Positions 28,169 through 30,351 of a stretch of 64,000 bases of DNA are shown one piece after another. A model generated the notes under the pieces. That model had not been told where the DNA came from. It searched no databases and was given only the letters and a program-made list of their open reading frames with translations. Both the position numbers and the translations under genes were made by a program. The stretch comes from Coraliomargarita sp. GTDB lineage: Bacteria > Verrucomicrobiota > Verrucomicrobiia > Opitutales > Coraliomargaritaceae. Positions within the stretch are counted from its first letter, which is position 1. Every line of letters begins with the position of its first letter. The stretch is from NCBI GenBank assembly GCA_965216325.1, contig OZ244160.1, positions 2,496,001-2,560,000 on the forward strand, given 5' to 3'.

Positions 28169-28268
28169 GGTGGCCGGGTCCTATGCAATGTTCGGTCCGA
28201 TGAACCCCGTCAGGTCCGGAAGGAAGCAGCGGTAATTGGAACAACATGTCGTAGGGTGCCTGGCCACT
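28169..28268 (+). ncRNA. ffs: Signal recognition particle RNA (4.5S)
   Basis: Conserved domain IV CCGTCAGGTCCGGAAGGAAGCAGCGG; terminal stem GTGGCCGGG/CCTGGCCAC; upstream of dnaX. Confidence 0.95.
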
Positions 28269-28363: not shown

Positions 28364-29518
28364 ATGGAACAAGGTTATCAAGTTATCGCGCGCCGCTGGC
28401 GTCCCAAGCAGTTCGATGAGCTGGTGGGGCAAGACCACATCATTCGCACCTTGCGTAACGCCATCGAAACCAACCGTATCGCGCACGCCTACTTGTTTGT
28501 GGGGCCGCGGGGCACGGGTAAAACCAGCTCCGCACGTCTGTTTGCTAAGGCGCTCAATGCTGAGGGTGGCCCCAGTGTTTCGCCGGACAACGAGTCTGAC
28601 ATTAGCAAGGCGATCATGACGGGCTCGTGCATGGACGTGATCGAAATCGACGGTGCGTCCAACAACAGCGTCGACCAGATCCGCGACCTGCGTGACGACT
28701 GCCAATACGCGCCCACGCAGTGCAGCTTCAAGATCTACATTATCGACGAGGTGCACATGCTGACTACTGCGGCATTCAACGCATTGTTGAAGACGCTCGA
28801 AGAGCCGCCGCCGCACGTGAAGTTCATTTTCGCGACCACTGAGTCGCATAAAGTGTTGCCAACCATCGTCTCGCGTTGTCAACGCTTCGAGTTCCGCCCG
28901 ATTGCGGACGAGGTGATCGTTGAGAAACTCAAAACCATTTCCGAAGCCGAAGGCATCAATGTCGAGCGCGCTGCGCTGGAGTCGATCGCACGACTGGCTA
29001 ATGGCGGTATGCGCGACTCGCAGTCGATCCTCGACCAGATGATTTCCTTCTGTGGCAATGAGATCGCCGAAAGCGATGTGCTCGATGTGTATGGTCTCGC
29101 TTCGGCAGATCGTATTGCCGAGCTCGCGCGCTCGATCGGTTCGCTCAACTACCCGGCCATTCTTGCGGCAGTGGACGCTTTTGCGGACGAGGGCCGTGAT
29201 CTGTTTCGTATTTTGCAGGATTTGCAGGCGCACATTCGCACCGCACTCTTGGATGCCATCGCGAACAAGGGCGCGTCCGACAAGCTTGGCACTCCGCTGA
29301 CCACTGAGTCGATCATGCGTATGCTGGATGCACTCCACCAAGGTGAGGCATCGGTGCAAAAAGGACTTTCTGAGAAGGTGAACTTCGAAGTGGTGCTGCT
29401 CAAGGCCGCTGAAGAGTCCCGCTCCCGCGCCATTGATAGCCTGATCAAACAGCTGGCGAATGCCGAAGTTGCTGAATCTGGCAGCGAGGGTGGTAGCGAA
29501 GGCGAAAAAAAAAACTAG
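28364..29518 (+). CDS. dnaX: DNA polymerase III subunit gamma/tau (frame-0 product, gamma length)
   Basis: [50 protein letters not shown]; ends GEKKN*. Confidence 0.97.
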
Positions 29519-29910
29519 TCTTTGATTCAGTCGAATCGACCGAGCCATTGCCGCCGCTGGTCTTACCCGAAGCCGCTCCGACGCCGGAGCCAATGGCGGA
29601 ACCCAGTGGCACGCCCATCGCCGTTGAAGTGGACGATGATCCCGATGCAATCCTGCGCGCCATGGCGGGAGAGGGCACCATCGTCGAAGAAATTACTGAA
29701 GAGGATGGTGTCGAAGAAGATCCGGATCCTTTTGGTGCTGCGGGCGCAGCCGTCGTCGAAGCTGCAGTCGCGCAGACCAGCCAAAATCTCATGACCGTTC
29801 CTGAGGCGGAAGCGAAACTTGGTGCCGAGGTGCTACAGGTGCTCGACCAGCGCTTCAAAGGTCGCGTCAGCGAGGTCCGTCACGTCGACGAGCGTGATTT
29901 GATTTTTTAG
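29515..29910 (+). CDS. dnaX: Probable tau-specific C-terminal extension of DnaX, in the -1 frame after the A10 run
   Basis: Open frame directly after A10 (29505-29514): acidic Pro/Glu linker then [19 protein letters not shown]. Confidence 0.75.
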
Positions 29911-30065: not shown

Positions 30066-30332
<267 letters not shown>

Positions 30333-30351
30333 GGTATTTAGATACTGCGAC

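Follow-up and report, generated by a model that had tools for sequence, protein, structure and literature searches.

Tau in a shifted frame: a dnaX gene of Coraliomargarita sp. with a conserved A10 run at the gamma/tau junction, and a census of the same junction in Opitutales

The dnaX gene of Escherichia coli is recoded at the gamma/tau junction. There, according to the dnaX passages of Atkins et al. 2016 (PMC5009743), -1 programmed ribosomal frameshifting takes place at A_AAA_AAG. In Thermus thermophilus, transcriptional slippage on a run of nine A's (A9) is described instead, both in those passages and in the part of Antonov et al. 2013 (NAR 41:6514, PMC3711429) that deals with dnaX. The same part of Antonov et al. 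2013 (PMC3711429) presents, as a novel arrangement, dnaX genes that cannot yield tau without recoding. It reports 17 such genes from 12 genera, all of which need a -1 shift; twelve have a poly-A run, which is A10 in nine of those, and transcriptional realignment is inferred there by analogy with Thermus. This account of reversed dnaX genes is repeated in the corresponding section of Atkins et al. 2016 (PMC5009743).

The gene described here lies in a stretch of 64,000 nt from Coraliomargarita sp. (hereafter the window), and its features are collected in Table 1. Read in frame 0 from the ATG at 28364, the gene runs through GGC GAA AAA AAA AAC TAG and ends with the stop at 29516-29518, one codon past the A10 run, giving 384 aa. 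In the -1 frame, a stop at 29494-29496 is followed by an open stretch from 29497 to the TAG at 29908-29910; the N-terminal part and the -1 extension together make a product of 515 aa. The +1 frame reads ..ACT AGT CTT TGA, that is, three codons past the run and then a stop. Because of these stops, any change of frame must fall in 29497-29518, 22 nt including the run. A preliminary description of this DNA had placed the A10 run, the frame-0 stop and the 384-aa product at coordinates that all proved exact when re-derived, and its further statements, of a -1 frame open to 29910 with a 515-aa product and of a +1 stop within four codons, are confirmed as well.

Table 1. Features at and around dnaX in the window (positions in the window)
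Feature	Position	Strand	Remarks
SRP RNA, bacterial small (ffs)	28172..28268	+	Rfam RF00169 at 65.4 bits (gathering score 40); directly 5' of dnaX, context only
dnaX, frame 0: 384-aa product of gamma length with AAA+ domains I-II and domain III, ended by TAG	28364..29518	+	TIGR02397 and Pfam matches
GAGGG, Shine-Dalgarno (SD)-like motif	29486..29490	+	14 nt 5' of the A10 run; probably incidental
A10 run, slippage-prone, putative recoding site	29505..29514	+	kept in relatives
Tau-specific extension, -1 frame, 131 aa and TAG	29515..29910	+	acidic Pro-rich linker, then conserved end
Hairpin, 7 bp including one G-U, loop AGTC	29522..29539	+	centroid fold, -5.6 kcal/mol
C-terminal module, extension residues 87-131	29773..29907	+	motif common to uninterrupted DnaX of sister families; module HMM; AF2

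The identity of the frame-0 product is clear. It matches NCBIfam TIGR02397 (dnaX_nterm) at 1.1e-123 with 413 bits, against a cut-off of 250, and the Pfam families PF13177 (1.6e-43), PF22608 (2.5e-14) and PF12169 (5.1e-6). The N-terminal features of DnaX are present, namely an AAA+ ATPase with Walker A, a lid domain and domain III. The gene is single-copy, with one match in the 3.06-Mb genome.

Overall, the locus shares most with the reversed dnaX genes as Antonov et al. 2013 present them: the poly-A run is followed at once by the end of the frame-0 ORF, at the gamma/tau junction, the -1 ORF encodes the tau part, and here, too, site and direction are kept among the relatives (20/20 family loci). 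The preliminary description had spoken of 'inverted logic'. The layout so described is real, but it is not new, being of a kind already published in 2013 in the dnaX account of Antonov et al. (PMC3711429). What sets the present case apart from that set, all 17 of whose reported genes need -1, is that Opitutales also has 23 loci that need the +1 frame. With the Thermus gene, as those two accounts describe it, the locus shares a run of at least nine A's at the gamma/tau junction and nearby stops in both non-tau frames, and the exact Thermus layout occurs at 42 Opitutales loci. In Thermus, however, the DNA frame is that of tau and slippage leads to gamma, whereas the DNA frame in the window is that of gamma and slippage would give tau. 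The gene and the junction are also those of the described E. coli system, with an A-rich slippery site and two products that have their N-terminal part in common. In that description the E. coli shift yields the short product and needs an upstream SD motif and a strong stem-loop; here it is the long product that the shift would yield, and neither of the two stimulators is kept among relatives. The dnaX gene of Blochmannia is reportedly subject to poly(A) frameshifting. Unlike Blochmannia, the organism of the window is free-living, with a genome of 3.06 Mb, and conservation of the run extends across an order.

To what extent is the frame break a real property of the gene? A search with the extension over 41 related genomes found it in 20 of them, 19 of the 24 from the same family and none of the 16 from other families. 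All 20 loci have exactly A10, a frame-0 stop 0-6 codons further on and a -1 frame that stays open for about 91-131 codons. The same poly-A run and the same break were therefore recovered in relatives, where the preliminary description had suggested looking for them. It had also suggested verifying the A10 length in DNA, and that length stands: an independent marine metagenome contig covering 29299-29909 differs from the window by 19 substitutions and 0 gaps with A10 unchanged, and the deepest DNA run (depth 421), which may be the assembly's own source, has 0 differences.

The substitutions themselves change frame at the run. Between the window and the related metagenome strain, third positions of frame 0 take 15 of the 16 substitutions 5' of the run, and third positions of the -1 frame take all 17 of those 3' of it. 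For the closest genome (L002), third positions of frame 0 hold 39 of the 46 substitutions 5' of the run, and third positions of the -1 frame hold 21 of the 28 beyond it; within the first 33 nt after the run, ahead of any start codon, the proportion is 4 of 5. The upstream comparison with L003 was left out, its 211 differences reflecting indels that broke the ungapped register. Judged by these patterns, the -1 frame is evidently under purifying selection from the first codon past the run. Taken together, the 20 loci with A10, the independent metagenome contig and the switch of selected frame at the run show that the break is not an assembly error.

The nearest named relatives are labelled Coraliomargarita and Lentimonas (order Opitutales, Verrucomicrobiota). 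Among 80 named loci, 79 of which were scored, A9 or A10 with tau in the -1 frame was found at 47, a run with tau in the +1 frame at three and a run with both shifted frames open at one. The remaining ones were uninterrupted (19), short and without a run (3) or running off the end of the locus (6).

The extension ends in a module of 45 residues, roughly L..E.FR..F..VR......L, which is also found at the C-terminus of uninterrupted DnaX proteins in sister families. A profile of this module locates it in the shifted frame of the recoded genes and in frame 0 of the uninterrupted ones. The profile consists of the last 47 alignment positions and replaced a profile of the whole alignment (A1), whose matches took in the end of domain III in frame 0 as well. 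Alignment A1 omitted 8 of 111 rows: L001, which is identical to the window, and L028, L035, L046, L067, L093, L118 and L122, in which the C-terminal motif was absent by eye. The profile is partly circular, having been built partly from recoded loci; the independent matches are those at L162-L275, outside A1, and they take in 9 of the 14 confirmed +1 cases.

Comparisons of the extension with known families returned little. No family in Pfam or NCBIfam matched it, and a PEX14-like Pfam row with an E-value of 0.034, under its cut-off, was disregarded. Neither sequence nor fold matched tau domain V (Pfam DNA_pol3_tau_5). A sequence profile searched against PDB chains returned 0 matches at E up to 1; Foldseek with the extension model found nothing in the PDB, its best E-value being 5.9. 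The function of the extension may nevertheless equal that of tau domain V. In the AF2 model (mean pLDDT 70.7) only residues 90-130 are confident (pLDDT 86-94), where it shows a helix followed by a tail in extended form; the remainder resembles a flexible linker.

The module was also modelled as a complex with the last 306 residues of DnaE from the same genome. The ipSAE values were 0.74, 0.74 and 0.75, compared with 0.00 for the best of three controls; the alignments were custom ones, and the score may reflect likeness to solved tau-alpha complexes. Of 157 solved complexes, 116 attain the same ipSAE mark, as do 2 of 215 mismatched pairs. The partner had a pLDDT of 81, the runs shared at least 95% of their contacts, and the modelled contacts fall in residues 206-286 of the DnaE fragment, the very C-terminal domain of DnaE. 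The model thus supports docking of the module on that domain. The tau-like end that the preliminary description saw in the extension is borne out in this sense, as a module common to the C-termini of uninterrupted DnaX and predicted to dock on DnaE. Apart from the module, a Pro-rich stretch at 29545-29574 (extension residues 11-20), just past the run, has a pLDDT of 79 within the low-confidence linker. Relatives show L/V..P motifs there, and the stretch may be a second short binding motif.

How general is this junction? We utilized 151 genomes drawn evenly from Opitutales. dnaX was found in 146 of them, and 144 junction loci were compared, with two partial matches and one duplicate left out. 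A run of A9 to A13 is present at the junction in 111 of the 144 loci, 320-331 residues past Walker A, and 84 of the 111 runs are A10. Tau lies in the -1 frame at 46 loci (A10 in 38, A9 in 8), in frame 0 at 42 (A10 in 24, A9 in 14, A11 in 3, A13 in 1) and in the +1 frame at 23 (A10 in 22, A9 in 1); a run of nine or more is lacking at 33 loci, most of them in genomes of roughly 0.8-1.4 Mb. For 86 loci the module profile decided the tau frame; for the other 25 it was taken from the longest open frame. At the loci with tau in frame 0 the other two frames mostly stop within 0-12 codons, which is the Thermus layout.

Families are mostly uniform: 7/7 members of f1 have tau in the -1 frame, 7/7 of f3 in the +1 frame and 6/6 of f2 in frame 0. 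The family of the window is represented in the order sample by seven members, all with the same site and shift direction. More than one state occurs in eight families, in some of which (f12, f17, f5, f19, f31, f34) the deviation comes from a lone draft genome and could be a homopolymer error. At A10 loci whose tau is in the -1 frame, the run sits in codon phase 1 in 25 cases, in phase 0 in 6 and in phase 2 in 2.

These distributions suggest a frame-free joint. Slippage of RNA polymerase at about ten A's might fill the three frames in such even shares that it becomes nearly neutral which of them holds tau in the genome, and tau would then drift between 0, -1 and +1 by gain or loss of single A's. 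The gene in the window would then be one of three interchangeable states and not a special design. We lean slightly towards this picture of the Opitutales junction.

Two groups of loci in the sample call for separate mention. In families f4, f8, f20 and f37 (e.g. L254, L272-L275), with genomes of about 0.8-1.4 Mb, dnaX ends 311-397 residues past Walker A, has no run of nine or more A's and has no detected tau C-terminal module; the tau end of these genes may be different or reduced. A genome of 8.3 Mb has two dnaX matches with identical scores 1.77 kb apart (G139:C3:1506189-1507301 and 1507959-1509071), which represent either a tandem duplication or an assembly artefact.

For the gene in the window, we consider a reversed two-frame dnaX the probable explanation: gamma would come from the DNA frame and tau through slippage of RNA polymerase on A10, with some -1 ribosomal frameshifting as a possible addition. 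RNA polymerase would slip on the ten A's and leave a mixed population of mRNAs. One extra A would reach the -1 frame, and one fewer or two extra would reach the +1 frame. An mRNA with A10 would then be read as gamma, one with A11 as the 515-aa tau, and one with A9 or A12 as gamma with a short tail, ..KKTSL. Ordinary translation of the mixed mRNAs would thus provide both subunits from one gene, and some of the same 515-aa protein may also come from -1 ribosomal frameshifting on the in-phase A_AAA_AAA. The preliminary description had taken gamma as the default and held that tau needs an extra A or a -1 shift. The conserved break, the purifying selection apparent in the -1 frame, the C-terminal module and the predicted binding to DnaE all agree with that reading. 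Slippage by RNA polymerase is favoured because the length of the run is held while its phase and the direction of the shift vary, and because frameshift stimulators are neither above chance nor conserved. Metatranscriptome contigs match dnaX only at 29098-29356 and in short conserved pieces at about 28632-28827, all 5' of the A run; a second candidate RNA data set gave no match.

An alternative is that tau arises mainly by programmed -1 ribosomal frameshifting on A_AAA_AAA in the A10 mRNA, as in E. coli dnaX with the products reversed. The heptamer is present in phase as GA[A AAA AAA] AC, trivially so for any A10; likewise, any A9 or A10 run holds an in-phase A_AAA_AAA, so -1 ribosomal frameshifting is possible for genes of the -1 type. 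The GAGGG upstream and the small hairpin starting 7 nt 3' of the run would fit the E. coli pattern, and the reversed genes are worded as ribosomal frameshifting in the relevant section of Atkins et al. 2016 (PMC5009743), where one candidate has E. coli-like signals. Both elements were noted in the preliminary description and do exist at the positions given there. A stimulatory role is supported for neither: the 46 nt 3' of the run fold with a z of +0.35 relative to shuffles, 120 of 200 shuffles folding at least as well, no hairpin is conserved at the corresponding position across relatives, and GAGGG is not conserved either.

Across recoded loci the signals are somewhat more frequent than at control sites. 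Folding 3' of the run in 84 contexts has a mean z of -0.50 versus +0.17 at the control site, and a weak enrichment of strong folds is seen, z being below -2 in 7/84 versus 1/84. SD-like 4-mers lie 5-20 nt 5' of the run in 28 of 131 recoded contexts versus 17 of 131 in the control window, and SD-like 5-mers, somewhat enriched, in 17 versus 6 of 131. Against this, 103 of the 131 contexts have no SD-like motif, and neither a conserved SD-like stimulator nor a stable, conserved stem-loop of the E. coli type was found. A -1 shift leaves unexplained why tau is in the +1 frame at 23 loci and in frame 0 at 42 with the same run. Seven A's would be enough for it, yet all ten are kept, and the codon phase is free. 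We therefore regard ribosomal frameshifting as an unlikely main source of tau.

Two further observations bear on frameshifting. The genome encodes tRNA-Lys(CUU) as well as tRNA-Lys(UUU), which counts in favour of RNA-polymerase slippage; according to the E. coli literature, having tRNA-Lys(CUU) lowers shiftiness at A_AAA_AAG in relatives. Strong GC-rich hairpins start 2-8 nt past the A run at L029, L031/L065, L066, L082 and L010, which include genes with tau in the +1 frame.

The downstream frame could also be a separate small gene with its own start, in which case no fused tau would be made. ORF finders do offer such a gene (TTG 29548..29910, 120 aa), and a large protein collection contained no joined protein of at least 241 aa with the extension, which is weak evidence. 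However, third-position substitutions start right after the run, ahead of the TTG at 29548, and the same module ends uninterrupted DnaX proteins in sister families. In 131 contexts, moreover, the position of the first ATG, GTG or TTG in the tau frame ranges from 406 codons ahead of the end of the run to 111 codons past it, and ATG is altogether lacking in 40; with start codons so scattered and ATG so often absent, an independent start is improbable, and we give a separate gene very little credence.

Still harder to credit is phase variation, in which the length of the run would vary in the DNA of the population and cells would switch between making gamma only and making tau. Contigs hide rare variants, but dnaX is single-copy and the consensus length is fixed at A10 across the whole family. 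Tau is essential in model bacteria. A homopolymer miscount or a recent inactivating mutation in a true single ORF can practically be dismissed, for even though homopolymers are error-prone and the strongest DNA evidence may come from the assembly's own reads, exactly A10 recurs in 20/20 related assemblies, at 33 further recoded named loci and in the independent metagenome contig, with frame-specific selection on both sides of the run.

The layout has consequences for how these genomes are read. Gene callers break up this essential gene, leaving a short dnaX beside an ORF without a name, so that tau looks absent; for these marine degraders of polysaccharides, a recognised A10 joint restores the link between clamp loader and polymerase. 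The pattern across the order, with one run length and tau in any of three frames, is comparative evidence for RNA-polymerase slippage, and the sister genes of Opitutales form ready-made sets in which to measure how the tau:gamma ratio depends on run length and frame. Our literature searches turned up no such order-wide census and nothing specific on Verrucomicrobia. New here are the frame-switching selection at the run, the predicted contact with DnaE and the census with three frame states in one order.

Runs of this length are few in the genome. Within its 3.06 Mb only 14 A/T runs of at least nine and only 7 of at least ten are present. The position and conservation of the A10 run exceed chance; the mere existence of a run does not. 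Outside the window is a pair of promoter-like stretches, nearly identical and separated by 1.5 kb (G000:C1:461846-461855 and 463390-463400), each with TTGACG, a T10 or T11 in the spacer and TAGACT. A homopolymer in a promoter spacer is a classic layout of phase-variable promoters. On the 3' side of dnaX lies a tRNA-Met gene (30066-30140), whose 3' part with a terminator-like tail (30105-30193) is repeated 150 nt downstream (30255-30343) at 88% identity, and the repeat could be an integration or excision scar at the tRNA gene.
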